Shown here piece after piece: positions 1 through 49,148 of a stretch of DNA of 64,000 nucleotides. The notes below the pieces were generated by a model. It was not told the origin of the DNA. It made no database searches and worked only from the letters and a program-made list of their open reading frames with translations. The translations under genes were made by a program, and so were the position numbers. The stretch spans positions 135,529 to 199,528 of the forward strand of contig CACNFT010000001.1 in the NCBI GenBank assembly GCA_902619825.1, given 5' to 3'. Every line of letters begins with the position of its first letter. Position 1 is the first letter of the stretch. This DNA comes from an uncultured Candidatus Actinomarina sp. (lineage in GTDB: Bacteria > Actinomycetota > Acidimicrobiia > Actinomarinales > Actinomarinaceae).

Positions 1-2325
1 GTTTTTGATTTCTTCTTCTAGTTGTTGTTTATTCTCAAGTTCTTCCTCTAACTTGGATATTGAATTGTTAAAATCTTCAATGTGGCTTTGAAGAGAAGTT
101 CTTTCTAGTTTTTCTATTTCTAAATCTTTACTAATAGGTTCTAGTAGTTTTTTTAGGCTTTTCTTCTTAGAGTTCAGATCTGTAGTGAGACTATTGAGTT
201 CTAGATTTTGCTCTTCTAAATTTAATGTGTCTTGATTTAAATCACCTAAAAGATCTAATTGCTCTTCTAAATCTTCACTTTCCATAAAAGCTTTCGAAAC
301 TTTATATTTTTTTATTAACTCATCAGACGCTTTTTTAATTTCTGTGATGCCTTCTTTCTTTTTGCTTAATTCTTCTTCTAACTTGCTCTTTGAATCATTT
401 AAGGTGTTTAATTCCTCTTCTAAATCTAATAAGTCATCTAACTCATCAAAATAATAGGAGAAATCCGAGTCTTTAAGGGTTACTTCACCCAATTTATATT
501 TTTTTGAGATTGTCTCATTTTTCTTTAAAATATTCCTTACATCAGAGGTATATGTCTTTTCTTTGAGTTTTAAAATTTTGATTTCTTCTTCTATAGACTG
601 AAACTGTAATCTTGCTGTTAAATTTTTAACTAGACTCTCATAATCATCATGAATTAAAGACACCTTAGACATTATCAATGTCTCATTTTCCACAATAATA
701 TCTAATAGATCTTCTAATTTTTTTATATCTTTATAAGATTTATGAACTTTTTTAAATGTCTTTTGATTTTCTTCTAAAATGCTCTGGATAGATTCTGTAA
801 TTGAAAATATATCATCTCCTCTATAGTCGATGTGCTGTGTGTCGGCTTTGTCTTCATTCAATCTTTTTAGCTTTTTCTTTGTCTCATTAGCGTTTTGTTT
901 GATGTCAAGAATTTCTTTATTGAGTTTTTTCAACAACGTTTTATCTTTTGCGGTTATTTTTTCTTTTTTTAATTGAGCTATAGTCTGAGGAGAAAAGCCA
1001 CAACTATCTATTGACTCTTTAATTTCTTGTTTCTTGTTTTTTATATCGATTTTAAGTTCTGCTATTTCATCTACTAAAGGTTGTGAATCAAATTCATTTA
1101 TCTTGTTAGAAATTGTAAGTATTTTGTTTTTATCACTTTCTTTTAACTTAGTTTTTTTATAGTACGCAACACTTGTTTTTGTCAGATTTAACTCTTCTTC
1201 TATTTCCGTTAAGGCAGTTTTTAAACTTTCAACTTTATCTATTTGTAAAAGAACTTTTTCGTTTGCATTTTCATACTCATCAAATGCACTGAGATAGGTG
1301 TCTATTTCCAATTCTTTTAAATTGGTCTTTTTGACTCCACCAATCCTTTCATCACACTCTTCCAATTGGATTTTTAAATCTACTAGATTATTTCCCTTCA
1401 CTTCAACCTCTGAAATAGATTCATTCAAATTTTTATAATCTGATTCTATTTTTACGAGCTTATGGGTTTTATAAGAATTGGTCTTAATGTTTTTCTTTTG
1501 AAGAGAATTTAGTGAATCTAGTAATTCTCCAATATTTTCAATATGTTTTTGTTGAATTTGTATTTCTGTTTTTGTAGATTCCAGTTCACTAATTTTTGTA
1601 TTCAAGCTTACTATATCTTTCTTTAACTTAGCTATGTCCTCTTCATCATTTTTAGATAAATTATCTCTATTTTCTTTCTCTGTTTTTTCAAGGTCTTTTA
1701 GCCTATCGTTTACATCTTTTAAATTGTTTTGAAGCTCTCCAATTTTTGTTAGGTTTTTAGTTCTTGTTGCACTCTCTGTTTTATCTGTCAACTTAGTTGC
1801 ATACTCAGCATAAGACATAACAGCTTCTTCAACATTTTGAGACATTGAACCTGACGCTACGCTTATTAACTTTATTAAATCATTTCTTATGTTTTTATCT
1901 AACGAGATTGAACCTTGTATGTCTGAAATCATCTTTGTTGATGTAAAAAAGAAGTTTGAAAATAATCTTCGCATCTTCTCAACATCTTCTATTTGAGGAT
2001 ATATATTTTTTATCTGTTCATTAATATTTTTATCCCACTTACTTCTTGAAATTGATAGCTTGTCTCCATTGCTGTCAATATTTAAGATAACTCCTCCAGA
2101 TCCAATTTCTGTTCGTGACACTGCAGTTGGTCCGTCATAATCATATTGAAAATAGTGATCGCTTTTTGTGGGTATTCCAAAAAGCAAATGATAAAGAGAC
2201 TTCACAATAGATGATTTGCCAGAACCATTATCTCCAAGCAAAACATTTATATTAGGTTCGAATGAAATTGGCTTGAAGTCAACTAGGGCACCGTATTTTA
2301 GGATTGATAATTCTTCAAACTTCAT
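1..2325 (-). CDS. SbcC/Rad50-like ATPase, N-terminal 775 aa only; the gene continues past the window start
   Basis: Uninterrupted minus-strand frame from an ATG at 2325-2323 to the window edge; I spot-checked the translation at 1-60 and 1201-1260. The N-terminus MKFEELSILKYG...INVLLGDNGSGKSS has a Walker A motif. It is followed by hundreds of residues of K/E/L-rich coiled coil, as in SbcC. The start overlaps the sbcD stop (TAATG). Confidence 0.6.
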   Translation of the reverse strand, partial: MKFEELSILKYGALVDFKPISFEPNINVLLGDNGSGKSSIVKSLYHLLFGIPTKSDHYFQYDYDGPTAVSRTEIGSGGVILNIDSNGDKLSISRSKWDKNINEQIKNIYPQIEDVEKMRRLFSNFFFTSTKMISDIQGSISLDKNIRNDLIKLISVASGSMSQNVEEAVMSYAEYATKLTDKTESATRTKNLTKIGELQNNLKDVNDRLKDLEKTEKENRDNLSKNDEEDIAKLKKDIVSLNTKISELESTKTEIQIQQKHIENIGELLDSLNSLQKKNIKTNSYKTHKLVKIESDYKNLNESISEVEVKGNNLVDLKIQLEECDERIGGVKKTNLKELEIDTYLSAFDEYENANEKVLLQIDKVESLKTALTEIEEELNLTKTSVAYYKKTKLKESDKNKILTISNKINEFDSQPLVDEIAELKIDIKNKKQEIKESIDSCGFSPQTIAQLKKEKITAKDKTLLKKLNKEILDIKQNANETKKKLKRLNEDKADTQHIDYRGDDIFSITESIQSILEENQKTFKKVHKSYKDIKKLEDLLDIIVENETLIMSKVSLIHDDYESLVKNLTARLQFQSIEEEIKILKLKEKTYTSDVRNILKKNETISKKYKLGEVTLKDSDFSYYFDELDDLLDLEEELNTLNDSKSKLEEELSKKKEGITEIKKASDELIKKYKVSKAFMESEDLEEQLDLLGDLNQDTLNLEEQNLELNSLTTDLNSKKKSLKKLLEPISKDLEIEKLERTSLQSHIEDFNNSISKLEEELENKQQLEEEIKN

Positions 2326-3665
2326 TAATCATCCTTGTAACTTAAGCCGTTTATTATTCTTGAAGCTATTTTTATAGAATTGTTAATAATCTCTGAAGAC
2401 TCTTGCTCATCTATTTCGTCTGAAATAACTTTTTGTTCTGTAAGGGGAATCGATTTTGGCAAAATACCAAACTTTTTATTTAAATTTTTTTTAAATTCTT
2501 TTTTGGTTAAATGTTCAAAAACAGTCTCATTAATAAAGTTTTCTAAATCGTCTATATCTAGACCTTCTAGTTCTGTAACTATAGATTCAATTGCTTCTAG
2601 TGAGTCTTCTTTGGTGGAGGGTTTTAGTTTATTAATACATTTTATGATATTTAAATCTTCATATTCTAACTCCTCATTAAGACTTGTTAAGAGCTCTTCT
2701 TCTAAAATAAGGTTGTAATAGTCAGATTTTCCTTCTAATTCGACTGTTATCATCAAAAACTTACCTGGGTTTTCATTCTGAATTGATTCAATTTTTTTGA
2801 CAGTATTATTAACAATCTCACTTATGTCTTGATCTTTTTTGACTTCTGTTACTGCTGTAAAAAACCTAGCATCATCTAATGTCTTAAATGTTAACTCTGG
2901 TTCAAAATTTTTTACTTCAACTAAATAACACCCTTTTCCATCTGAAATATCATTACAAGTTTCTGACGGTTTAGTGCTTAGCCCCTGTGGATTTCCAGGG
3001 TAGACAGCTAAATATGGATCTTGAATGAGAATTTCTCTTTTGTGGATATGTCCAAATGCCCAGTAATTATATTCACATTTATCCAACATAGCTTTATTTG
3101 TCGGAGCATAGTTATGTGTTTCATCAAGCTTATATGTATTTTCATAACTTGTATGAATTAAACCAATGTTGAAGAAATCTCTGACTGGCTTTGGAAACTT
3201 TTCTACAAGTTTTTCTGTTACTACTTTTTTTGGGTAGCTTTGACCATGGATAGCTACTTTAAAATTATCAATAGTAAAAGTATCTGCATTTTTAGCTGGA
3301 AATACATAGGTGTTTTCAGGTAATTTTTTTGCTTCAAAAGATGTTAATAAATCAGAATCAACATCATGGTTTCCTAAAACAATGTAGATGTCAATATTTA
3401 ATTGGTCTAACTTTTTTAAAAAGTTTTTAAATTTTTTAAAATAATTGTCACTAGAGGGCATGTCGTCATCAAATGTATCTCCAGCGAGAAGAATGAAATC
3501 TGGTTCTTCTTCTTCGGCTAAAGCAACTAGATTGTCGAGAACCTTAATGGGAGAACGTCTTACTCGAATTTCTTGGTCAGGATCCAAAAAGCTATATTTT
3601 TTTGTTATTTCTCGCCCTATGTGTAGATCAGAAATGTGAATAAATTTAAATTCTTTACCCGCCAT
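2325..3665 (-). CDS. sbcD: SbcD/Mre11-family DNA repair nuclease (calcineurin-like phosphoesterase), 446 aa with an acidic C-terminal tail
   Basis: Phosphoesterase motifs I (HISDLHIG), II (LLAGDTFDD) and III (VLGNHD) are present. The gene sits immediately upstream of the SbcC-like ATPase and overlaps it. Confidence 0.75.
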   Translation of the reverse strand: MAGKEFKFIHISDLHIGREITKKYSFLDPDQEIRVRRSPIKVLDNLVALAEEEEPDFILLAGDTFDDDMPSSDNYFKKFKNFLKKLDQLNIDIYIVLGNHDVDSDLLTSFEAKKLPENTYVFPAKNADTFTIDNFKVAIHGQSYPKKVVTEKLVEKFPKPVRDFFNIGLIHTSYENTYKLDETHNYAPTNKAMLDKCEYNYWAFGHIHKREILIQDPYLAVYPGNPQGLSTKPSETCNDISDGKGCYLVEVKNFEPELTFKTLDDARFFTAVTEVKKDQDISEIVNNTVKKIESIQNENPGKFLMITVELEGKSDYYNLILEEELLTSLNEELEYEDLNIIKCINKLKPSTKEDSLEAIESIVTELEGLDIDDLENFINETVFEHLTKKEFKKNLNKKFGILPKSIPLTEQKVISDEIDEQESSEIINNSIKIASRIINGLSYKDD

Positions 3666-3733
3666 AAAGATATTGTAAGAAAAATTTTATTGATAAACAA
3701 TCTGTCTTACTAAATTCTTAAAATTAAAGTGTA

Positions 3734-4186
3734 ATGGTTAAGATAGAGACAAGAATTCAACTAGCAATTAAAGAGATTCTTGAAGAAGAAACCTGGAAAC
3801 ATCTGAAATCAAATAATAATTTCGACAAAGTGTTATCTATTGCTTCATTGATTAAACCTTTTGATGAAGGTCCTGATGTGTGTTATGAAGACTGCAATGG
3901 CATGTGTTTTGGTTGTTACGATGGCTATAAATACTCTCTTGATTGGAGAGCAAGTTATAACCTCCGAGAAAAAAAGCCTTTTAGTTTAATAACAGATCAC
4001 GAACTAGATATGTTAATTGATGCAATAGACGATAAGGTACACACATGTGATGAGTGGTGTTCAGATTTTATCTGTTACAAATATGAAGCTACAAATTGTA
4101 AGACTTGGTACTGTGAGAACTTATTTCTTAAAGAAAAAAAGAATATTAAATACTGTTCTAACTGTAGAGGACTTGCTCATATCTAA
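3734..4186 (+). CDS. Hypothetical Cys-rich protein, 150 aa (16 Cys, several CxxC/CxxxC clusters)
   Basis: Complete ORF with Cys clusters CYEDCNGMCFGCYDGY, HTCDEWCSDFICY and YCSNCRG. I recognise no family. Confidence 0.5.
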   Translation: MVKIETRIQLAIKEILEEETWKHLKSNNNFDKVLSIASLIKPFDEGPDVCYEDCNGMCFGCYDGYKYSLDWRASYNLREKKPFSLITDHELDMLIDAIDDKVHTCDEWCSDFICYKYEATNCKTWYCENLFLKEKKNIKYCSNCRGLAHI

Positions 4187-4187
4187 A

Positions 4188-5216
4188 TTAGACTTTTGTT
4201 AGCGAAGAAGAATATTTGCTTTCTAACGCAATTTTTATTTTTGATCCTATAAGTTTCATTAATGGAACAGTCACTGCATTACCTGCTTGTTTGTATAGTT
4301 GACCATCTGCAACATCAGTAGGCAATTTAAAAGACTTGGGGAATCCTTGAAAATTAAAACACTCTTTCGGAGTTAATTTTCTAAATCCCTTGTCATCAAT
4401 AACTAGTGGTACATTGTGACCACCAGTACCCATGTTTGCAGTCAATGTAAACATTTCATTACTTTGATTCTCTCTTACATAAATTCTTCGCCATTGATAT
4501 GCTGTTTCAGGATTTTTCATAGTTGCTTTTAATTCTTTATACATATACTTATCTGGCCCATAGTAATATTTTTCATCGACATCAGTTTCAAGCAGATCTC
4601 GAATACTTCTATTCCTTTTTCTGTTTTTAGGAGGATATACCGCATCAAAGTTAGCACTGGCTAATGGAAACTCACGATCTTTTCTTTCTTCCCAGTCAAC
4701 TTCATCCCTGAAGCCAACGATAATTGTTCTTTCTCTGTTTTGAGGAATATTGGTTAACTCTGAAGTGTTTAAGATATTCCAAAAAACTGAATACCCCAAT
4801 ACCCTTAAAGTGTCTTTAATGACTTCTGCTGTCTTACCTTTATCATGACTGGAAAGCCCTTTTACATTTTCTAACATGATTGCTTTTGGTGGTGTGTCTA
4901 ATTCTTCAATTAATCTGGCTATTTCAAAAAATAAATTACCTCTAGGATCCCTAAACCCTTTTCTGTATCCAGCAACAGAGAACGCTTGGCAGGGAAAACC
5001 ACCAACAAGAACATCTACTGGCTCAAGATCTTTTCCTTGGAGTAAATGAACATCATCTTCAATTAAATGTTTTCCATGATTTAACCTATAAGTTTTAGAA
5101 GAATACTTATCAAACTCATTTGCCCATGTAGTTTTAAATCCAGCCTGTTGAAATCCTAATTCAATTCCACCAACACCAGAAAATAGTCCACCAACTGAAA
5201 ATTTTTCCATAGGCAA
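4188..5216 (-). CDS. DNA (cytosine-5)-methyltransferase
   Basis: C5-MTase motifs are all present: I FSGVGG, IV GFPCQ, VI ENV, VIII QNRERTIIVGF, X GNAVTVP. At 342 aa it has the size of small type II m5C methylases. Confidence 0.85.
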   Translation of the reverse strand: MPMEKFSVGGLFSGVGGIELGFQQAGFKTTWANEFDKYSSKTYRLNHGKHLIEDDVHLLQGKDLEPVDVLVGGFPCQAFSVAGYRKGFRDPRGNLFFEIARLIEELDTPPKAIMLENVKGLSSHDKGKTAEVIKDTLRVLGYSVFWNILNTSELTNIPQNRERTIIVGFRDEVDWEERKDREFPLASANFDAVYPPKNRKRNRSIRDLLETDVDEKYYYGPDKYMYKELKATMKNPETAYQWRRIYVRENQSNEMFTLTANMGTGGHNVPLVIDDKGFRKLTPKECFNFQGFPKSFKLPTDVADGQLYKQAGNAVTVPLMKLIGSKIKIALESKYSSSLTKV

Positions 5217-6908: not shown

Positions 6909-9158
6909 ATGGGTAAACAAGCCTTAGGATTTGACTTTGGTACTTCAAACTGCACCGTATCAATTTTTGACTCAGATAAAGGGGTGGTCGAAACACTTCC
7001 TATCTCCAATTACTCAGAGTCAAAAAAAAGAAGCTTAGCTAATCAATCATTATTTCCTTCAAAAGTTGGTCTTAATGATGATTTTGAATATGTATTTGGT
7101 GATGAAACAAAAAAATGTGAGAGAGATTTTGTATGGGATAACTCTAAAAGGCTGTTGGAACACAATACTCCAATTTATAGAGGAGGAGTTCACAAAAAAC
7201 CTATTTGGGTTGCAATAGGAATAATGGCTGGAATTTTTAAGGAACTCAAAAACCTATCAGTAAAAACCTCTTCTCCTATGGTTATAACAGTTCCAGCTAA
7301 CTCATACAGTACACAAAGAAGCCTTACGAGATTAGCTGCTGAATCATTTAGCTTTAATGTAGACCAATTAGTTTCTGAGCCTTGTGCGGCCGCTTTAGGA
7401 TGTTATGAGTATATTGATAAATTAAAACACATTCTAATTGTAGATGTTGGTGGTGGAACAACAGATATAGCTTTGATAGAAAATGATTTTGGAACACTAA
7501 AAGAAATAGCAATTGAAGGCTTGAAACGATTTGGTGGTATAAATATTGATCAAAAAATGTATGAGAAATATAAAGTTGACTTCGAATTGTCAACTGATTC
7601 AGAAAAATTACTTTTCAGGGATTTACTAGAAGATGTAAAAATAGAATTATCTTCCAAGAAAAAGTCTAAATTAATTTATAAAGATCAGGTAGTTGAAATT
7701 ACAAGAGAAAGTGTTGAAAAATTAATAAAAAAAGATATTGAAAGTTTAGATAAAACAATTGATAAGGTTTTAAAAAAAGGAAAAGTTGAGATAAAGAACA
7801 TTGAGGCTGTTTTACCTATCGGGGGCTCTTCTAATATTCCTGCAATTAGAGAACACCTGAAAAAAAAGTTTAAATCTAGATTAATAAATCTTGATTTTGA
7901 TGAATCAATAACTGCAGTTGCAAAAGGTGCTGGAATAGCATCAGCTATAAATGCAAAGATTATAAAAGATCTAAACTTTAAACAATGTTTAGAACATAGT
8001 GTGGGTCTTAGAATTTGGAGTGGCACTAAAGAAAATAAAATTTTTAAACCGATGCTAGAAAAAGGGTCTGTATTTCCAGCGTCTGCAGTGCAAACCTTTA
8101 TCGCCGATACAGATGAATCTATAGTTGCTTTGTATGAAAGTACTTCAGGTAAATTAATAAGCAATGATACAAAGTTAATTATTGAAAAAAGAATTAAAAC
8201 TGGTGTTATGCATGTTGATGTTGAACTCACTTATGATGATGATGGAAAAATAGACATCAAAACATATAACATAAATAGAGGAGAGTGGGGAAAGTTAGGT
8301 GACCTAGGTGATAGTAGTAAGGACTCTCAAAGTTATATAAAAAATTTACGATCAAAATCCCGAGAACAAGGAATGAATCTAAGGATTGACAGTATCAATT
8401 ATATAGATTCACAATTAAATCAAAAAAAATTAAAAGAATGGTCAAACGAGTTCTTAGGAAAGTACAAAAAATACAAAAAAGTATCGGAAAAAGTAAAGAG
8501 CATTTTTAGTAAAGAAGTCAAAGATGAATTTATCTCTGTTAATAATGAGGATCTCTCGAATGTTGTTGTTGAAATTAGCTCAGAGGCAGAGTTTGGAAGT
8601 ACTAATGACGCATTTATGTATGCTGAAGGTGTTTTAAAACGTACTTTAAGAATTGTCTTTTCAATTGCAGGATACGAAAAAAAAGGTCATTTCAAAAGTA
8701 TTCATGACTTGTTAAGTGAATGTGATGTAGTTTATAAAACAAGACAAAAGTTATTGCCAGAACAGCCCCTTGATGACATAAGATGGTTAATTAAAGTTCT
8801 ACAAAGATCAAGATATTTAACTAATTTAGGACATATTAACACTGATGAATTAAGAAGTGATCTTGACTCATTGAGAACAATTTTAAATAAATATAGTCAT
8901 GGAGTTAGGTCTAGTTTTTTTTCAGAAGTATTCAATGATTCCTTAGATGAATACGACTCACTTATAGAAAGTAACATACTAGATGAAGTCTACAAAGAAT
9001 CTAAATATTCTGCACAAGATGTAGTTTTGATTTCTTCGAACATAGCTTCGTTAATATCATCTTTAATAAACACAAAGGTTTATATAGGCACAGATAGAGA
9101 CAACCTTATCAAAATGTTAGAAAGTATGTACACTTTGGTACAAACATATAAAGAGTAA
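6909..9158 (+). CDS. Non-canonical Hsp70-family (actin-like ATPase) protein, 749 aa, with an extra C-terminal helical domain
   Basis: Hsp70 motifs are present: phosphate-1 GFDFGTSNCTVS, phosphate-2 IVDVGGGTTDIALIE, adenosine PIGGSSNIPAIREHL. The ~370-470 segment resembles the substrate-binding beta-sandwich. The last ~280 aa form a helical domain unlike the DnaK lid, and there is no EEVD motif. Confidence 0.75.
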   Translation: MGKQALGFDFGTSNCTVSIFDSDKGVVETLPISNYSESKKRSLANQSLFPSKVGLNDDFEYVFGDETKKCERDFVWDNSKRLLEHNTPIYRGGVHKKPIWVAIGIMAGIFKELKNLSVKTSSPMVITVPANSYSTQRSLTRLAAESFSFNVDQLVSEPCAAALGCYEYIDKLKHILIVDVGGGTTDIALIENDFGTLKEIAIEGLKRFGGINIDQKMYEKYKVDFELSTDSEKLLFRDLLEDVKIELSSKKKSKLIYKDQVVEITRESVEKLIKKDIESLDKTIDKVLKKGKVEIKNIEAVLPIGGSSNIPAIREHLKKKFKSRLINLDFDESITAVAKGAGIASAINAKIIKDLNFKQCLEHSVGLRIWSGTKENKIFKPMLEKGSVFPASAVQTFIADTDESIVALYESTSGKLISNDTKLIIEKRIKTGVMHVDVELTYDDDGKIDIKTYNINRGEWGKLGDLGDSSKDSQSYIKNLRSKSREQGMNLRIDSINYIDSQLNQKKLKEWSNEFLGKYKKYKKVSEKVKSIFSKEVKDEFISVNNEDLSNVVVEISSEAEFGSTNDAFMYAEGVLKRTLRIVFSIAGYEKKGHFKSIHDLLSECDVVYKTRQKLLPEQPLDDIRWLIKVLQRSRYLTNLGHINTDELRSDLDSLRTILNKYSHGVRSSFFSEVFNDSLDEYDSLIESNILDEVYKESKYSAQDVVLISSNIASLISSLINTKVYIGTDRDNLIKMLESMYTLVQTYKE

Positions 9159-9966: not shown

Positions 9967-11808
9967 ATGGAAAAGAGAATATCTAAATCATTTAGGATCA
10001 TTTTTTCTAGTTTGTACCCAAATTTCAATGAAGAAGAAGCAAAAAACTCTGAGAAATACTTTAATTTCATCCTCGCAAATTTTCCTGATAGATCAGAAAT
10101 CACACTGCTAAAAATCGTCTTTTTTATCTTTTCTTTTGGTATAAGAAAAGTGTTCATAAAAGACAAAAATATTCCTAAATTTGTACAAAATCTACAAAGC
10201 TCGAACTTATCATTACTCAGAAAACTTGGCTCAGGCATGACAGCATTATTTGGATTAAGTACTGCAAGATCCCTTGACGGAGAGGGTTCTGTATACAAAC
10301 ATCTTGATTATCCGATCTATAAAAATACAAGAATAGAAAAAAAAGATGTATCAATTCCAAAAAGTATTGAGGTAGCAGTGATTGGAAGTGGTTCTGGTGG
10401 AGGTGTTGCAGCCAATATTCTCAATGAAAAATATGAAGTAGGTCTCTTCGAAAAAGGTAGTCACGGAAATGGTGAGACAAACAACGAGACATTCGGATAT
10501 CACAACTTCTATGACACTAACGGAATACAACAAACTAGAGGATATAAAGTCTTACTTTTGGCTGGAATGGGAATTGGTGGAGGTACCAGCGTGAATTGGA
10601 CAACTTCTCTACGAACACCTGACAATATATTAAGTGAATGGGACTCACTTACAGGACAAGATAACTATTTCAACTCCAGTGAATTTAAAAGCAGTATGGA
10701 TTATGTCTGTAAAGAATTAAATGTTGATGTAGAAAATAATAGAATCCCACAAAAAGAAGAGAAATTGGCAGAGGGTTTAGAGCTTAATGATCTTAGTTAT
10801 AAACTTATCCCGAGGAACACCAGTAATGCAGATTGCACAGAATCTGGCTTCAGTACTTTTGGTCGTTACGATGAAAGTATCAACTCCACTAACAAAGTTT
10901 GGTTTTCAGAAGATAAATTTGATCCTAAAAATGTGTTCAGTGATACAAATATCAAAAGCCTTGATATATCAAATGGAAAAGCAACACACATTAATGTTGA
11001 AAATAACGGGACACTACATAAAGTTGCCGTTGATAAGGTGATTCTTGCTGCTGGTTCCCTTAATACACCTAAAATATTGCTTGATAGTGGATATAGAAAT
11101 AAACATCTTGGTCATAATTTAAAACTACACCCTGTTTCTGGTGTCGCAGGTAAATTCTCAGACGAACAGAAACCATGGGCAGGAACAATGCAGGGTATAT
11201 ATTCAGATGACAATTTGTTTATGAAAGACAATTATGGATATCTTTTAGAGGGACTGCCAATGCATCCAAGTCTTTTCTTTCCGTTTTTTCCAAATAACAC
11301 TGATAAATTTGATGATTTTGTTGAAAGCTACAATCATTGGTCTGGAGGGATAGTTCTCACATCAGATACTAGCTCTGGATCAATCATCAATAAGAACCCC
11401 CAACATTTATGGGATTATAATTTAAACGATTTTGATCATAAGAACTTGATGCATGGAATTGAAAACCTTGTACGAGCAAATTATTTGGCCGGCGCAGAAG
11501 AGATTATGGTTGCAGCCTCTCCCACAATGCATTGGAAAAAATCATCAAATATAGATATCGAAGACTTCATAAACGATATTAGAGCAATAAAAAATCAGCC
11601 TTTTAGAATGCTGCTTGGTTCTGCACATCAAATGGGAACAGCCAGAATGAACCCAGATCCAAATCTAGGAGTAACTGATATTGATGGAAAAGTACATGGA
11701 TTAGATAATGTTTATGTTGTTGACTCATCGGTGTTTCCTCGATGTTCTGGAGTGAATCCAATGGTGACTATACAGTCAACAAGTCACTTTTTAACGTCAA
11801 AGATTTAA
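9967..11808 (+). CDS. GMC-family FAD-dependent oxidoreductase with a ~130-aa N-terminal extension
   Basis: FAD motif VIGSGSGGGVAA. C-terminal GMC signature HQMGTARMNPDPNLGVTDIDGKVHGLDNVYVVDSSVFP. Confidence 0.8.
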   Translation: MEKRISKSFRIIFSSLYPNFNEEEAKNSEKYFNFILANFPDRSEITLLKIVFFIFSFGIRKVFIKDKNIPKFVQNLQSSNLSLLRKLGSGMTALFGLSTARSLDGEGSVYKHLDYPIYKNTRIEKKDVSIPKSIEVAVIGSGSGGGVAANILNEKYEVGLFEKGSHGNGETNNETFGYHNFYDTNGIQQTRGYKVLLLAGMGIGGGTSVNWTTSLRTPDNILSEWDSLTGQDNYFNSSEFKSSMDYVCKELNVDVENNRIPQKEEKLAEGLELNDLSYKLIPRNTSNADCTESGFSTFGRYDESINSTNKVWFSEDKFDPKNVFSDTNIKSLDISNGKATHINVENNGTLHKVAVDKVILAAGSLNTPKILLDSGYRNKHLGHNLKLHPVSGVAGKFSDEQKPWAGTMQGIYSDDNLFMKDNYGYLLEGLPMHPSLFFPFFPNNTDKFDDFVESYNHWSGGIVLTSDTSSGSIINKNPQHLWDYNLNDFDHKNLMHGIENLVRANYLAGAEEIMVAASPTMHWKKSSNIDIEDFINDIRAIKNQPFRMLLGSAHQMGTARMNPDPNLGVTDIDGKVHGLDNVYVVDSSVFPRCSGVNPMVTIQSTSHFLTSKI

Positions 11809-23296: not shown

Positions 23297-24213
23297 ACTC
23301 TCTCTACTTCTTCAGTCCCAAATAGTCCATGAGGTTTTACGAGAAGAATTACAAACATAATTAGATATGGTGCAACAATTGAAAATCCATTTCCTAACTT
23401 GATGTTATAAGCACTTTCAATGTCAAATTGATAATAACCAACATATGCTTGAGTTAATCCAATAATTAATGAACCAATAATTGCTCCTGTTATGGAATCA
23501 AGCCCTCCAATTACAACTGCAGGAAGTGCTCGAAGAGCAGAAATAAAACTTGTATTAGTTAATGTGTTGAATCCACCGGTTATGAAAAAGCCAGCAAATG
23601 CTGCTAATAATCCAGCAATAAACCAAACTAATCCAAAGACTCTTCCGACATTAATTCCCTGTGCTAATGCTGCTTCTTGGTCAAGAGAAGTTGCTCTCAT
23701 TGCAACACCATATTTTGATCTTTTGAAAAAGACAGAAAGGATAGAAATTAGAATTAACGATGTTATTAATGCTGTAACCTCTAAATACTTTATTGTAAGA
23801 CCCCCGATATTTAGCGAGCCAAAATTTCCATAACTTGGAAACGGATCACCCATGTATTTTGGATTAATCCCTATCCAATTGTCTAATATAACTCGAAGCA
23901 ATATATCAATTCCTATTGTAAGTACCGCAACTGAAAAAACAGGCTCTCCTACCATTGGCCTTAAAAAAGTTCTCTCTAAAATAAAACCAAGTAGGCCTGT
24001 CAAAATGATACCTATGATAAATGCAAATATGAATGGTATACCTAACTGTGTTGCAAAATAACTTATAAATCCGGCTCCAACAACCACCATCGCAGGTTGA
24101 GCAAAACTTAAAACATCTGTAGCTCTAAAGATTAAAACAAATCCTATAGCAACTAATGAATAAACTGCTCCTAATGATAAACCTTCAAATGTTGCTTGGA
24201 GAAAAATATTCAT
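23293..24213 (-). CDS. Branched-chain-type ABC transporter permease (LivH-like)
   Basis: Multi-TM permease of the LivH family. Confidence 0.8.
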   Translation of the reverse strand: MNIFLQATFEGLSLGAVYSLVAIGFVLIFRATDVLSFAQPAMVVVGAGFISYFATQLGIPFIFAFIIGIILTGLLGFILERTFLRPMVGEPVFSVAVLTIGIDILLRVILDNWIGINPKYMGDPFPSYGNFGSLNIGGLTIKYLEVTALITSLILISILSVFFKRSKYGVAMRATSLDQEAALAQGINVGRVFGLVWFIAGLLAAFAGFFITGGFNTLTNTSFISALRALPAVVIGGLDSITGAIIGSLIIGLTQAYVGYYQFDIESAYNIKLGNGFSIVAPYLIMFVILLVKPHGLFGTEEVERV

Positions 24214-26051
24214 TTGTACATGTCATCAATTAGATCAGCAAATTTTTCCATAATCACATTTCTTTTTGCTTTTTGAGTAGCTGTAAGATCACCATCTTCA
24301 TGATCTAACTCTTTAGTTATCATTCTGAATTTTCTTAATTCAAGCGTTGATGTTAATTCATTTGCCTTTAGTATCTCATTCCAGATGAGTTTTTGTACTT
24401 CTTCATTTTCAGACAAATTCCTGTAAGTTGTATGGGGTATATTCTTCCTGAGTGCCCAATTAGAAACAATGTCATACTCAATACCAATTAGACAGGATAG
24501 AAATTTTCTATCATCACCAATTACTATTGCTTCCTTTATGTATGGTGAGGTTTTTAAATTATTTTCTATTTCAGATGGTGAAACATTTTTTCCACCACTT
24601 GTAATAATGATATCTTTTTTTCGATCAATAATTTTTAAGAACTCGCCATCATACTCTCCAACATCACCCGTGTACAACCATCCATCTTTATCAATCGTTT
24701 CTTTTGTAGCTTCTTCATTTTTGTAATAGCCAAGAAATACTCCAGGATGTCTTACAAGTATCTCTCCATCATCAGCTAGCCTTATTTCAACATCAGGTTG
24801 AGGAACTCCTACAGTACCTAACTTTACGCTGCCAGGTTTATTTCCCGTGGCTACTGCACTGTTTTCTGTCATCCCATATCCCTCATAGATAGGCACTCCC
24901 ATATTCATAAAGAATTTTAAAATTTCAGGAGCTATTGGAGCTGCACCAGATACTGCATTATCAACATTTAAAAGACCAAGTTTCTTTTTTAGAGCTCTGA
25001 AGCAGATTACCTGAGCAATAAAATTTGTGACTTTAGCCATGAAATCATCCTCACCGATATTAAGTCTTCGATTTGCCGAAAAATTTCCTAACTTCGATGC
25101 TGTCGCAAATAGTAATTTTTTTAATCTTGATGCATCTTTCATCCTTACAAGAGTTCCGGCATGCATGCGTTCAAGAATTCTTGGAACTGCAGGAAACATT
25201 GAAGGTTGAACTTCGGCTAGATCTCTTTGTACAGTATCGATTGATTCTGCAAAGTTAATCGTTCCCATGACATGAATAGCCACAATGATATCTATTAATC
25301 TCCCAAAAATATGACAAATTGGTAGATATGATAAAAATTCAGGATTACTTATTCCTGGTGTAAAAGATAATTTAGGAATAATTGAACCACACCACTCTAA
25401 ATTGCCGTGAGATATCATAGAACCTTTAGGAGCTCCAGTAGTACCTGATGTATATATCAAACAGGCTACATCACCTGATTCAATTTCTTCCATTCTTGAT
25501 GTAACAAAATCATTGTTTTTTTCATACTCTTCTTTTCCAATAGCTAAGAAATCATTCCATGACATAAGTATGTCTTCTTTATAACTTACAACTCCCCTGT
25601 CTTCAAAATATATAATTTTTTGTAAATTAGGTAATTCATCCATTACTTCTAGAGCTTTATCAACTTGTTCTTGATCCTCTGCAAAAAGTATTTTTGTTTC
25701 TGAATGCCCAAGCAGGTATTTAACTTCTGATGGGGGATTTGTTGGATAGAGTCCAACAGTTATTGCTCTTATAGATTGAATACCAATATCTGCGATGATC
25801 CACTCGGGTCTATTTTCAGAATGCACTGCTGCTTTATCGAATCTATCTACACCAAAATAGTTTAATGCGCATCCAACCCACTGTGCTTGGTCCCAGAAGC
25901 TTTGATATGATATTTCACTCCAGATTCCAAATCTTTTGTCCCTGAATGCAACTCTTTCAGGAAATCGGGAAGCAATCTCGTTAACTTTCCTACAGGGAGT
26001 ACTTCCTCCATTTTCAATAATTTCACTAAATATGTTTTCCATTGTTAACAT
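24210..26051 (-). CDS. Long-chain acyl-CoA synthetase (AMP-binding)
   Basis: AMP-binding motif YTSGTTGAPKG and core. It is embedded between the permease and ATPase genes. Confidence 0.8.
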   Translation of the reverse strand: MLTMENIFSEIIENGGSTPCRKVNEIASRFPERVAFRDKRFGIWSEISYQSFWDQAQWVGCALNYFGVDRFDKAAVHSENRPEWIIADIGIQSIRAITVGLYPTNPPSEVKYLLGHSETKILFAEDQEQVDKALEVMDELPNLQKIIYFEDRGVVSYKEDILMSWNDFLAIGKEEYEKNNDFVTSRMEEIESGDVACLIYTSGTTGAPKGSMISHGNLEWCGSIIPKLSFTPGISNPEFLSYLPICHIFGRLIDIIVAIHVMGTINFAESIDTVQRDLAEVQPSMFPAVPRILERMHAGTLVRMKDASRLKKLLFATASKLGNFSANRRLNIGEDDFMAKVTNFIAQVICFRALKKKLGLLNVDNAVSGAAPIAPEILKFFMNMGVPIYEGYGMTENSAVATGNKPGSVKLGTVGVPQPDVEIRLADDGEILVRHPGVFLGYYKNEEATKETIDKDGWLYTGDVGEYDGEFLKIIDRKKDIIITSGGKNVSPSEIENNLKTSPYIKEAIVIGDDRKFLSCLIGIEYDIVSNWALRKNIPHTTYRNLSENEEVQKLIWNEILKANELTSTLELRKFRMITKELDHEDGDLTATQKAKRNVIMEKFADLIDDMYK

Positions 26052-46353: not shown

Positions 46354-46686
46354 ATGGATAGTAATGTTGAAAATTTTGCAAACCTAGACATAAGAGTTGG
46401 CCAAATTTTATCAGCTGAAGTTTTTGAAGAGGCAAAAAAACCTGCATACATTTTAAAAATAGATTTTGGAAATGATATAGGTGTAAAAAAAACAAGTGCT
46501 CAAATTACAAATTATCAGATAGATGAACTGATTGGAGTTAGATGTATTGGAGTAATCAATCTTGGTGACAAACAAATTGGTCCGATAATTAGTCAATGTT
46601 TAATTCTTGGATCGATAAACGATAATGGGGATGTTTTACTGCTTCAACCCAGTCCAGAAGCTGATTTAGGTGACAAAGTTTCTTAA
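46354..46686 (+). CDS. tRNA-binding protein (CsaA / Trbp111-like EMAP domain)
   Basis: LDIRVGQILSAEVFEEAKKPAYILKIDFG matches the tRNA-binding OB fold. Confidence 0.7.
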   Translation: MDSNVENFANLDIRVGQILSAEVFEEAKKPAYILKIDFGNDIGVKKTSAQITNYQIDELIGVRCIGVINLGDKQIGPIISQCLILGSINDNGDVLLLQPSPEADLGDKVS

Positions 46687-47156
46687 CTAACCAAAGAGTC
46701 AAACTTCTCAACATTAAAAGTACCGACCCTTTTATAAATTTTATCTCCATGTTTGTCTACAAGAACATATGTTGGTGTATATTTAAGATTATATTTCTCA
46801 ATAGTCTCAAGATAATCTTTTTTTGAAGCATTTACCGATACAATTGGTATTTCTTCATGCTTTTTTTTGAATTCATTAACTATGAATTTTGAAGCAGTGC
46901 AACCCAGTCAGTAGTCAGAGTAAAATTCAATTATTGTATATTCAAAGTTTGAAAAATTATGATTATCAAGAACTAAACCTCGTTTTGAATTAAATAAATA
47001 CAATCCAAAAAAAGAACCTATCACAAAAAAACTTAATATATATAGAACGATTGAAGGCTCAAATGCGATAAAAAATATCACTAAGCCAAATATCCACCCC
47101 AAAGGTAAGTAAATAAGGCTGTATCTATTGATAAACTTTAAAAGAATTTTTTTCAT
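46683..47156 (-). CDS. Membrane-anchored thioredoxin-fold protein interrupted by an in-frame TGA at 46908-46910; candidate UxxC selenoprotein or TGA-disrupted gene
   Basis: The 82-aa ORF (2 TM, ...EFYSDY) ends at TGA. The same frame continues with no ATG for 74 codons to a TAA at 46683-46685. The continuation is LGCTASKF...YNLKYTPTYVLVDKHGDKIYKRVGTFNVEKFDSL, which aligns to the thioredoxin WCGPC...cis-Pro...C-terminus with TGA at the first Cys. Confidence 0.45.
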
Positions 47157-47191
47157 ATATTTACATTCTTTTCACAAATTATACTTTAATT

Positions 47192-47602
47192 ATGGATCTG
47201 ATTAACAAACTCAGAGATAATGGTAATCGTATTACTGAGTCTAGAAGTACAATTTGTAAAATTCTTGAGGAAGCAGGTCATGAACATTTTACAGCAGATG
47301 AACTATACAAACTTGCCTTAAACAGAGTTCAAGACATTGATTTAGCTACCGTATATAGAACACTAGAAATTCTTGAGTCATTGGATCTTGTAGAGCATTC
47401 ACACCAACAACATGGCTCAGGGATTTATTATCTTAAAAACCAAGAAAGAACTGCTCATATAGTTTGTAACAGTTGTAAAAAGATTATAGACATTTCAAAA
47501 AACGTCATCAACTCTGTCGAAAAAATTATTGCAAAAGAATCAAATTTTAATTTAATTGACAATCATTTCGTGTATGCGGGAGTTTGTAATAAATGTAAAT
47601 AA
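47192..47602 (+). CDS. Fur-family metal-responsive transcriptional regulator
   Basis: Winged-helix N-terminus, HxH and two CxxC pairs. Confidence 0.8.
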   Translation: MDLINKLRDNGNRITESRSTICKILEEAGHEHFTADELYKLALNRVQDIDLATVYRTLEILESLDLVEHSHQQHGSGIYYLKNQERTAHIVCNSCKKIIDISKNVINSVEKIIAKESNFNLIDNHFVYAGVCNKCK

Positions 47603-47640
47603 CTATTTTTATTGCAAATTGATTGCATTAAAATATTGTC

Positions 47641-48405
47641 ATGTATCCTACAAGCCACCAACATCATTTATCAATTCATGAAAATTCTGAATTAAAGAAT
47701 ATTAAACCCCAGCAAAAAGTATTAGGTTGCTTTTTGATTGTTTTGTCTATTGCATTTTCTGATGTAAGAGATCTATTTCAAATATTCTTGCATATATTTT
47801 TAGTTTTTTATATTTTATCACTGACAAAAATTCCAACTAAAACATATTTAAAGAGATTAACTTTAGATATACCTTTTATTTTATTTGCATTATTCCTTCC
47901 ATTCCTTAGCAGTGAGAATAATGACAAAATATTTGAAATTTTTTCATTTAATGTTTATCAAACAGGTGTAAATGATATGTTTACAATTTTATTCAAAGCA
48001 ACTTTGGGTCTGACCGTTGGAATAATTCTTACGGGAGTAACTTCAAGCATGGAAATAATTTATGGTCTCCAAAAATTAAAAATTCCAAATATCATTATTG
48101 CGATCATGTCCTTCACGATACGATATATTGATGTATTCATTGATGAGTTCAAACGAGTTAAAATTTCAATGGCATCAAGAGGTTATGTTGAAAAAGGTTT
48201 AAAAACCTTAATACCTATTGCATTTGCATCTGGAGCCCTGTTAATTCGAGGATATGAAAGAGGTGAAAGAGTTTATTTATCCATGATATCAAGAGGGTTC
48301 AATGGAAATATAGATTTCAAATCACGAAATTACGAAATTTCTAACAAATTTAACTTTTGTGTAATTTTATCAATCATAACTTTATTGTTGGACAAGATAC
48401 TATGA
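47641..48405 (+). CDS. ECF/cobalt-type transporter transmembrane component (CbiQ/EcfT)
   Basis: Multi-TM protein with a CbiQ-like C-terminal ARG motif region; overlaps the ATPase gene. Confidence 0.7.
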   Translation: MYPTSHQHHLSIHENSELKNIKPQQKVLGCFLIVLSIAFSDVRDLFQIFLHIFLVFYILSLTKIPTKTYLKRLTLDIPFILFALFLPFLSSENNDKIFEIFSFNVYQTGVNDMFTILFKATLGLTVGIILTGVTSSMEIIYGLQKLKIPNIIIAIMSFTIRYIDVFIDEFKRVKISMASRGYVEKGLKTLIPIAFASGALLIRGYERGERVYLSMISRGFNGNIDFKSRNYEISNKFNFCVILSIITLLLDKIL

Positions 48406-49148
48406 CTAAATATTTAGAAGTTAATAATTTAAGTTATTCCTATCCAGACGGTCATGAAGCATTAAAAAATATAAGCTTTGATCTTGATAACAAAGAGTCA
48501 TTGGCAATATTAGGCCCTAATGGTGCAGGAAAAACTACTTTGATTCTTCACTTAAATGGGATTTTAGGAAATTTAGATAAAGAAATAAAAGTAAGTAATT
48601 TTGAATACACAGATGAAAATATCGCAGATATTAGAAAGACTGTAGGTGTGGTTTTTCAAGATCCTGATGATCAATTATTTATGCCAACAGTAATAGAAGA
48701 TGTTATGTTTGGACCAAAAAATTTTGGATACAATGTTACAGAATCTGAAGAACTTGCAATCCATGCACTAAAACAAGTTAATATGATTGATTTCTTAGAT
48801 AGACCACCACACCACTTAAGTTATGGACAAAAACGTAAAGTTGCTATCGCAAGCGTTTTAGCATCAAAACCAAAATTATTAGTTCTTGATGAGCCAGGAT
48901 CAAATCTTGATCCATCATCTCGTAGGGAGTTAATTGAAATACTTAATAATCTAGAAGTTTCAAAAATTCTTGTGACCCATGACTTACCTATGGCATTAGA
49001 AATCTGTGAAAGAAGTATTGTTTTAAATGATGGAAAAATAACTCGTGATGACAATACATTAAATATTTTAAAAGATGAAACTTTTATGAAAAATAATAGA
49101 CTAGAGCTTCCATATGGATTTGCATTTCATCATTTAGGTGAAGAATAA
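48402..49148 (+). CDS. ECF/cobalt-type transporter ATP-binding protein (CbiO/EcfA)
   Basis: Walker A GPNGAGKTT, signature LSYGQKRK, and Walker B LLVLDEP. I chose the start at the ATGA overlap with the cbiQ stop. Confidence 0.85.
   Translation: MTKYLEVNNLSYSYPDGHEALKNISFDLDNKESLAILGPNGAGKTTLILHLNGILGNLDKEIKVSNFEYTDENIADIRKTVGVVFQDPDDQLFMPTVIEDVMFGPKNFGYNVTESEELAIHALKQVNMIDFLDRPPHHLSYGQKRKVAIASVLASKPKLLVLDEPGSNLDPSSRRELIEILNNLEVSKILVTHDLPMALEICERSIVLNDGKITRDDNTLNILKDETFMKNNRLELPYGFAFHHLGEE

Follow-up and report, generated by a model that had tools for sequence, protein, structure and literature searches.

We analysed a 64-kb stretch of DNA from an uncultured Candidatus Actinomarina sp. (contig CACNFT010000001.1; the whole stretch is referred to as the window), in which a short gene on the minus strand is interrupted by an in-frame UGA. 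Our results indicate that this is very probably a genuine UxxC selenoprotein gene, in which the UGA at codon 83 is recoded as selenocysteine (Sec, U) within a 157-residue, membrane-anchored oxidoreductase of the thioredoxin fold. The same had been proposed in an earlier reading made from the letters of the window alone (the sequence-only reading), and the proposal is now supported by a conserved TGA, by Sec/Cys pairs, by selection on the half of the gene downstream of the TGA and by a covarying hairpin. The replacement of the attacking cysteine of a thioredoxin-like oxidoreductase by Sec is an already known kind of selenoprotein, and its biology would not surprise specialists. In the sea, Actinomarina ranks among the smallest and most abundant of the free-living bacteria. 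What is added here is such a gene in a key marine organism, a family-wide view of its selenocysteine insertion sequence (SECIS) with Cys-forms as controls, a weak A-U-rich variant of that element and an annotation artefact caused by genetic code 4.

Conservation of the in-frame UGA

An ATG at position 47156 opens a frame of 82 codons on the minus strand (47156-46908), which ends with NFEYTIIEFYSDY (EFYSDY) and then meets a TGA at 46910-46908. Past this TGA the same frame stays open for 74 codons (LGCTASKFIVNEF...EKFDSLVS) until a TAA at 46685-46683 (Table 1). The coordinates and the frame of the 82-residue open reading frame (ORF) described in the sequence-only reading were thus reproduced. 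The same reading held that the 74 codons contain no start. The open frame was found as described, and the strict wording was not, as one in-frame ATG, GTG or TTG does occur 3' of the TGA, namely a TTG at codon 155. Since this sole start-type codon lies three codons before the stop, the second half is not translatable on its own, and the claim holds in substance. The window has a G+C content of ~32%. TGA terminates 17 of its 68 long ORFs, several of them as ATGA stop-start overlaps, and is therefore an ordinary stop codon in this DNA. An alternative code, with TGA meaning Trp or Gly, was ruled out by these 17 ORFs together with the finding that TGG never replaces the TGA. Several Candidatus Actinomarina single-cell genomes match the window at 99% protein identity. 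No other convincing selenoprotein gene was found in the window; what had looked like candidates arose from antisense or out-of-frame reading, and the gaps are small.

Table 1. Features of the probable selenoprotein gene and of the adjoining regulator gene, in window coordinates
Feature	Position	Strand	Basis or remark
Complete gene of the probable selenoprotein	46683..47156	minus	157 codons plus TAA stop; UGA (putative Sec) is codon 83
Thioredoxin-fold domain (residues 72-157)	46686..46943	minus	Pfam PF00085, PDB sequence matches, Foldseek
Codon for Pro128, putative cis-proline (T-P-T)	46773..46775	minus	Invariant P128; aligned to the thioredoxin cis-Pro
Bacterial SECIS-like hairpin	46870..46888	minus	7-bp stem AAUUCAU/AUGAAUU, 5-nt loop AGUUA (loop 46877-46881)
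Frozen synonymous block, codons 89-95 (S-K-F-I-V-N-E), over the hairpin	46872..46892	minus	Synonymous entropy
Redox motif, predicted U-L-G-C (codons 83-86)	46899..46910	minus	Aligned with CGPC/CGHC of solved thioredoxin and protein disulfide isomerase structures
In-frame UGA, putative Sec codon (codon 83)	46908..46910	minus	TGA in 58/58 orthologous loci, TGG in none
Transmembrane helix 2 (residues 36-57)	46986..47051	minus	AlphaFold2 helix
Transmembrane helix 1 (residues 16-31)	47064..47111	minus	AlphaFold2 helix; N-x-Y-S motif (N10, Y12, S13) before it
Fur-family regulator gene, divergent	47192..47602	plus	Pfam PF01475, E=8.5e-29; 35 bp from the selenoprotein start codon

The sequence-only reading had suggested looking at the residue that orthologues carry at position 83. 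One genome per species of the Genome Taxonomy Database (GTDB) was searched with the protein family, which gave 47 loci, all of them labelled Candidatus Actinomarina or related Actinomarinales/Acidimicrobiia except for three odd labels of metagenome-assembled genomes (MAGs). Together with 11 metagenome contigs, which come from a range of projects and assemblers, they make up a set of 58 loci, drawn from single-amplified genomes (SAGs), MAGs and metagenome assemblies obtained with different technologies. Codon 83 was TGA in 58 of 58 loci and TGG, TGC or TGT in none, at protein identities of 55-99% and with the same length and frame; the codons flanking the TGA varied synonymously. Chance falls far short of explaining such conservation. 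Contigs with the orthologue include JBJKUL010000001.1 and CALSSQ010000001.1, each of ~1 Mb. Exactly one internal stop was present in each of the 54 distinct coding sequences (54/54), and the pairwise ratio of nonsynonymous to synonymous differences (pN/pS) was 0.31 before the TGA and 0.38 after it. The single internal stop and the similar ratios on both sides indicate that the downstream half is translated and under purifying selection.

At first sight the protein databases tell another story. A protein search returned ~55 full-length homologues of 157 residues with 50-98% identity, all with W at position 83, and a few homologues that terminate right at ...FYSDY. Such a sense residue superficially favours a pseudogene or a sequencing or assembly error, i.e. 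a TGC/TGT or TGG that became TGA in a dead or mis-sequenced gene, for which one base change is enough. However, no W protein was reproduced when its own contig was translated with table 11. The underlying DNA reads TGA in every case, so that the W is an artefact of gene calling with genetic code 4, which was applied to short AT-rich contigs. The nonsense mutation (TGG to TGA) that the database W had suggested for the window was ruled out by the homologues' DNA, which is TGA throughout. With TGA in all 58 loci from independent assemblies of different technologies, and 74 downstream codons that are open and under purifying selection, the pseudogene or sequencing error that the sequence-only reading had kept as its alternative is excluded; we put its probability at next to nothing.

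The conserved TGA and the selected downstream half likewise exclude a functional product that terminates at the UGA, an 82-residue two-helix membrane peptide followed by an untranslated or relic remainder. Just this product is predicted by code-11 gene callers (82 residues in P0059, P0061, P0062 and P0067), and termination is expected to compete with Sec insertion under selenium limitation. Yet the 74 downstream codons are free of stops in 54/54 distinct sequences and evolve at a pN/pS like that of the upstream half, the thioredoxin fold is incomplete without them and the Cys-form orthologues described below are continuous. A gene that ends at its UGA is thus exceedingly improbable, and read-through into the downstream half is what we consider further.

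The two ways of calling the gene create a problem for catalogues, as code-4 callers put a false Trp at the Sec position and the gene is split or cut short by callers using code 11. Dozens of false-Trp entries are present across ENA/MGnify, JGI, Logan and NCBI (P0001-P0058, P0078, P0080, P0084, P0143 and others; loci L001-L010 and L059-L067), and on longer contigs the gene is cut at the UGA into fragments of 82-94 residues. Within the genus, residues L84, G85 and C86 do not vary except in one MAG, which reads U-L-G-F. In this Candidatus Actinomarina sp. MAG (JBEROH010000022.1, L055:10247-10260) Phe has taken the place of Cys86 (TGT to TTT), and the TGA and the hairpin are kept; U-L-G-F stems either from an assembly error or from a natural monoselenol variant. 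Among the odd labels, a 4.7-kb contig with a gene copy 99% identical to that of the window (L015, JAKVCV010000044.1) is filed as a 'Saprospiraceae bacterium' MAG and is probably a binning contaminant. Loci L018 and L054 carry Acidimicrobiaceae labels.

Thioredoxin fold, active site and Sec/Cys pairs

According to the sequence-only reading the read-through product aligns with thioredoxin, with the TGA at the N-terminal cysteine of the CxxC motif. HMMER, Pfam, a fold model and Foldseek all bear this out. Pfam PF00085 (Thioredoxin) covers residues 72-152 with 28.2 bits against a cutoff of 23.5. In HMMER (phmmer) searches of the PDB, EFYSDY[83]LGC aligned with DFFATWCGPC of a thioredoxin (2xbi) and with EFYAPWCGHC of the protein disulfide isomerase PDI-A4 (3idv), and YTPT stood opposite the cis-proline motif MPT. 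An AlphaFold2 model built with 24 homologues (predicted local distance difference test, pLDDT, 84) consisted of helices at residues 16-31 and 36-57, followed by a domain of the order strand-helix-strand-helix-strand-strand-helix. The best PDB matches of this model in Foldseek were thioredoxins (probability 1.00, target TM-score 0.7-0.76), and the membrane-tethered StoA was also among the matches. The protein thus belongs to the thioredoxin-fold superfamily by its above-threshold PF00085 match, the order of strands and helices, the position of the CxxC motif and the cis-proline. In these alignments the UGA falls exactly on the attacking N-terminal cysteine of CxxC and would give U-L-G-C.

In the N-x-Y-S motif ahead of the first helix, N10, Y12 and S13 are invariant or almost so across the wider family. 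The charges around the helices differ between lineages. Counts of lysine and arginine in the N-terminus, the inter-helix loop and the segment after helix 2 were 4/0/2 in the Actinomarinales clade (range 4-5/0/2-5) and mostly 0/2-4/0-3 in other members of the wider family. The positive-inside rule, the one simple charge rule on which the contrast rests, predicts that in Actinomarina both termini are inside and the redox domain is cytoplasmic, and that the domain is extracytoplasmic in most other members.

When 1.84 billion representative proteins were searched exhaustively with a profile, 353 relatives came up. Many of these have ~160 residues and the same architecture, with the N-terminal N-x-Y-S motif and two hydrophobic helices. 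Some carry CxxC and others an apparent 'WxxC'; in the DNA of four distant W lineages the codon was again TGA. P0077, a Cys-form of a sister lineage, is 32% identical to the window protein and has the motif FSSIYCAGC with the codon TGT. Its gene order is that of the window, with a Fur-family regulator, the thioredoxin-like gene, a tRNA-binding-domain protein, a flavin mononucleotide (FMN) reductase and an acyltransferase, and because of this shared neighbourhood P0077 is a positional orthologue with Cys.

Metagenome DNA was then scanned with a pattern that allowed any TGN at the key codon and also required S-x-[YF] and K-P-x-V-D. At least 120 stretches were obtained, 97 of which resemble family members among the matches listed. 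In these matches the key codon was TGA in 86 cases, TGT or TGC in 11 and TGG in none, a ratio of Sec to Cys that may be biased because the pattern demanded S-x-[YF] and K-P-x-V-D; the contigs spanned 29-75% G+C. The complete absence of TGG among the listed matches is a strong argument against decoding as Trp. A protein search with a family member of intermediate G+C content found many full-length Cys-forms in MAGs of Chloroflexota and Bacteroidota, whose public names are only 'thioredoxin family protein' or 'thiol-disulfide isomerase/thioredoxin'. Judged by their codons, the Cys-bearing homologues and the TGA forms are a classic Sec/Cys pair.

The downstream hairpin and probable Sec insertion

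A hairpin 3' of the UGA, with the stem and loop AAUUCAU-AGUUA-AUGAAUU, had been noted in the sequence-only reading as a candidate SECIS at a distance of 20 nt. The stem was found as described, and the gap between UGA and stem is 19 nt rather than 20, with 26 nt from UGA to loop. The consensus of the bacterial SECIS (bSECIS) asks for a loop of 3-9 nt with G and then G/U among its first positions and a stem of 4-16 bp (PMC13188914), and for 16-37 nt between UGA and loop and an energy at or below -7.5 kcal/mol (PMC13188914). In geometry the hairpin agrees with this consensus, having a 5-nt loop A-G-U-U-A, a 7-bp stem and the 26-nt distance.

The synonymous sites over the hairpin are frozen. Codons 89-95 had a mean normalised synonymous entropy of 0.087 as compared with 0.61 for the whole gene (permutation p=1e-4). 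The codons TTC, ATA and GTT were invariant in 54/54 distinct sequences, and Phe91 was always TTC (54/54), while TTT dominates the other Phe codons of the gene. Within Actinomarina the 7-bp stem was whole in 31/31 species. Other lineages have different sequences at the same offset that still pair, among them AAGCCUGU-AGUUG-AUAGGCUU, AGCCUAU-AGUUG-AUAGGUU, CCUGU-CGUUG-ACAGG and the G+C-rich CCCGU-CGUGG-ACGGG. The synonymous third base of the Pro codon covaried with the first base four codons downstream (C-G 44, U-A 23, G-C 5, mismatch 2), and the A/G at the Ile/Val codon with the U/C of the Asp codon. In 69 aligned U-forms (those with TGA), 91.5% of cells were paired, as against 20-44% when the partners were slid. 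Double-sided changes occurred in 5 of 7 pairs, and the 71 double-change cells, compared with 20.0 +/- 9.6 after shuffling, were reached in 0 of 500 shuffles.

The Cys-forms behaved differently. In 12 of them the same register paired in 67.9% of cells, no better than shuffles (309/500), and the syntenic Cys orthologue P0077 has no hairpin at that site. All four unforced inner pairs were present in 59 of 74 U-forms and in 2 of 10 Cys-forms among the matches listed (Fisher p=3.4e-4). As read from these alignments, an RNA helix is under selection in the UGA forms only, and the candidate SECIS gains in standing from its bSECIS geometry, its frozen synonymous sites, its compensatory changes and the loss of the helix in Cys-forms. 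The family alignment is also a natural test set for bacterial SECIS elements, in which the same helix occurs in A-U-rich and G-C-rich versions and the Cys-forms are negative controls.

In the palindrome TTCATAGTTAATGAA a 5-bp spacer separates the arms of a perfect inverted repeat, and a conserved divergent Fur-family gene begins only 35 bp from the start codon. The palindrome could hence be a DNA operator, e.g. for the adjacent Fur-family regulator, instead of or besides an RNA signal. However, the palindrome lies ~270 bp inside the coding region and occurs once per locus, and no further copy turned up elsewhere in the window or in the ~20 kb covered for each of the 47 related loci. Other lineages change the sequence completely and keep the pairing, which points to an RNA helix and not to a sequence-specific operator; these lineages have no Fur neighbour, and the syntenic Cys-form has the Fur neighbour without the palindrome. 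We therefore regard an operator as highly improbable and treat the palindrome as a probable SECIS.

A number of observations weigh against Sec insertion and against the hairpin as its signal. Folding of 68 nt gave -6.2 kcal/mol with z=+0.49 against shuffles, i.e. no thermodynamic excess. The hairpin by itself has -3.5 kcal/mol, and counted from the UGA the energies are -4.3 (45-50 nt), -6.2 (60 nt) and -7.6 kcal/mol (70 nt), so that the limit of -7.5 kcal/mol is reached only with 70 nt folded and the element is borderline or failing in this respect. Rfam gave no match at gathering or permissive thresholds. Compensatory changes were absent within the 31 Actinomarina species, in which the sole two stem substitutions were G-U wobbles. 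The shuffles used for covariation ignore shared ancestry, and part of the helix was fixed by the search pattern itself, namely the closing U-A pair and, on the 5' side, the C-C of the Pro codon. The only tRNA in the window is a tRNA-Met, with no tRNA-Sec, and none of ten size-matched ORFs of the window is SelA, SelB or SelD. The flanks of +/-10 kb around the 47 related loci contain no tRNA of any kind and no Sec machinery. The evidence for Sec machinery in the source genome comes from one genus-level preprint, with a selB below the threshold, and the actual incorporation of selenium into the protein is what we infer from sequence. As regards the hairpin, its significance derives from conservation and covariation, not from folding energy.

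Selenium use by Actinomarina was first reported in 2026 (bioRxiv 10.64898/2026.04.03.716425). In that work ('Actinomarina, resolved'), tRNA-Sec (selC), selA and selD were present in all 84 complete Actinomarina genomes (bioRxiv 10.64898/2026.04.03.716425). In the same 84 genomes the selB homologue is divergent and just under the profile threshold, and there is no selenouridine synthase (bioRxiv 10.64898/2026.04.03.716425). About five selenoproteins (~5), mostly uncharacterised, are predicted per genome, and the SECIS models of Rfam had no matches in Actinomarina (bioRxiv 10.64898/2026.04.03.716425). Elsewhere in the family, a G+C-rich metagenome contig with a U-form (L186) has a tRNA-Sec ~4 kb from the gene (4554-4650 and 8550-8597). 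SelA and SelB were not found beside this tRNA-Sec, the neighbours being an SCO1664-family gene (actinobacterial-type), Maf, a YgeY-like hydrolase and ThrC. The hydrolase, a homologue of the YgeY family that is described as 'selenium metabolism-linked', adjoins the tRNA-Sec and scores under its cutoff.

The weakness of the hairpin and the lack of Sec machinery within the 64-kb window would be compatible with a UGA that is read as a standard amino acid, either Trp by a near-cognate tRNA or Cys, with the hairpin as a generic stimulator of read-through. Leaky decoding of UGA by tRNA-Trp does occur in bacteria. Decoding as Trp would, however, let TGG swap with TGA, and TGG was found in 0/58 orthologues and in 0/97 family members among the matches listed. 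Homologues with another residue there always have Cys, in the catalytic place of CxxC, the hairpin has the loop signature (G-U) and the spacing of a bSECIS, and selABCD are reported for the genus. In our judgement read-through with a standard amino acid is very improbable, and Sec at codon 83 is the reading that we retain.

If Sec recoding proceeds here as is standard in bacteria, the UGA at codon 83 would be redefined as Sec during translation. The mRNA hairpin would show its G-U-containing apical loop to SelB-GTP-Sec-tRNA(Sec) and recruit the SelB complex to the ribosome, and Sec would be inserted in place of termination. The product would be a thiol/selenol-disulfide oxidoreductase with a pair of transmembrane helices at its N-terminus and with a minimal thioredoxin-fold domain, in which Sec83 would attack substrate disulfides and Cys86 would resolve the intermediate via a selenenylsulfide. 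By cycling between the selenolate/thiol state and the Sec83-Cys86 selenenylsulfide, the protein may reduce or isomerise disulfides at the membrane. SelB binding, substrate, electron donor and the side of the membrane are putative in this scheme.

Known relatives and gene neighbourhood

Among bacterial selenoproteins, those with UxxC in a thioredoxin fold are the kind met most often, above all in marine metagenomes (PMC2398784). One of the families found in Global Ocean Sampling (GOS) data, 'Trx-like 3', has UxxC, is marine-enriched, comprises 212 Sec and 183 Cys sequences and is weakly similar to cd02950, with an E-value above the threshold (Zhang and Gladyshev 2008, PMC2398784 Table 2). The family described here resembles it in having UxxC on a thioredoxin fold, a marine occurrence and Sec forms in numbers equal to or above those of Cys (86 and 11 here, among the matches listed). 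Both also show weak TxlA-type similarity (cd02950 there; NF038096, thylak_slr1796, with 16-24 bits here) and a bSECIS whose apical loop contains G. Unlike here, the two-helix membrane anchor and Actinomarina are absent from the text of that paper (PMC2398784), and the motifs of the window family were not found in one part of its supplementary sequences. It is plausible, by comparison of descriptive features only, that the wider family is GOS Trx-like 3.

The thioredoxin of Treponema denticola is an experimentally verified Sec-containing thioredoxin of PF00085 with UxxC (PMC13188914). The window protein is like it in its thioredoxin fold, in the predicted Sec in place of the N-terminal catalytic cysteine, in the resolving cysteine three residues further on and in the cis-proline. 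It differs from thioredoxin proper in its score (TIGR01068, 28.7 bits as compared with a cutoff of 96.8) and in its predicted motif YULGC, which is neither WCGPC nor WUGPC. In contrast to thioredoxin, which is soluble and has ~105 residues, it has two N-terminal transmembrane helices and the NxYS motif and lacks the classical first strand and helix. As a membrane-tethered thioredoxin-fold domain with weak similarity to DsbE, ResA and slr1796 profiles it is reminiscent of ResA, StoA, TlpA and DsbE and of cyanobacterial TxlA/slr1796. It scores far under their cutoffs, however, and has two helices where those have one signal-anchor, and its domain is predicted to be cytoplasmic, not extracytoplasmic. 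For TxlA/slr1796 (NF038096, cutoff 140 bits) the window protein reached 16.0 bits and P0084 24.3 bits, and no CcdA/DsbD partner is present in the gene neighbourhood.

The curated models of thioredoxin-like selenoproteins, GOS_C NF045500, SaoT NF040730, HUIPC NF047660 and VPGUxxT NF041383, gave no match above cutoff. Trace matches below cutoff were obtained with PDO_seleno_TRX TIGR02187 (15.4 against 185) and TsoB NF045694 (14-24 against 805). The hairpin shares with the Escherichia coli fdhF-type SECIS and the bSECIS consensus a position shortly 3' of the UGA, within the coding sequence, and the expected geometry. In contrast to these it consists of nearly all A-U pairs, is very weak and has no bulged U that we could identify, and SelB is reported to be divergent in the genus. 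The preprint on the Actinomarina selenoproteome names a 78-residue family without assigned function, SelD and a K07090 family, and describes no thioredoxin-like membrane protein and no SECIS structure (bioRxiv 10.64898/2026.04.03.716425). In one supplementary file of the preprint the window protein had no match (bioRxiv 10.64898/2026.04.03.716425).

With the present analysis, a fold and an active site can be assigned to one of the ~5 selenoproteins of Actinomarina, along with a defined candidate SECIS, and the protein is placed in a far larger, mostly Sec-containing family, for which annotations give no more than the generic 'thioredoxin family protein'. We tentatively go one step further, with a proposal that is less likely to be right as a whole than to be wrong in some part. 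The Actinomarina gene may belong to a widespread, Sec-dominated family (contigs with G+C fractions of 0.29-0.75 among the matches listed) of two-helix, membrane-anchored thioredoxin-fold selenoproteins that is undescribed as such and has no selenoprotein model in Pfam or NCBIfam. Its SECIS would lie inside the conserved coding segment K-P/F-x-V-D/N, and its AT-rich hairpins would be too weak for SECIS predictors with an energy threshold, so that catalogues truncate the protein or insert Trp. The Actinomarinales branch may furthermore have inverted the orientation of the redox domain.

The adjacency of the Fur-family gene and the selenoprotein gene is kept in L005-L011 and in the Cys-form orthologue (L068/L069). 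With a gap of 35 bp between the divergent starts, both promoters must overlap coding sequence. The Fur-family gene heads a pair of an energy-coupling factor (ECF)-type CbiQ and an ATP-binding cassette (ABC) ATPase (window 47157-49148). In the Cys-form sister lineage (L068:7019-9957) a CbiM/PDGLE gene lies between Fur and CbiQ that is absent from the window and from L005-L010. The Fur, CbiQ and ATPase neighbours hint at a possible metal or oxidative-stress context.

Further away, at the left end of the window (1-5216), an SbcC-like ORF of at least 776 residues on the minus strand continues past the edge. It is followed by SbcD (2325-3665) and then by a Dcm-type cytosine-5 DNA methyltransferase (4188-5216). 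A GMC-family oxidoreductase with weak matches to mycofactocin-associated MftG-like proteins and a FadD11-like fatty-acid-CoA ligase are encoded at 9967-11808 and 24210-26051. The oxidoreductase and the ligase, the scores of which are all below the family cutoffs, fit an actinobacterial origin of the window.

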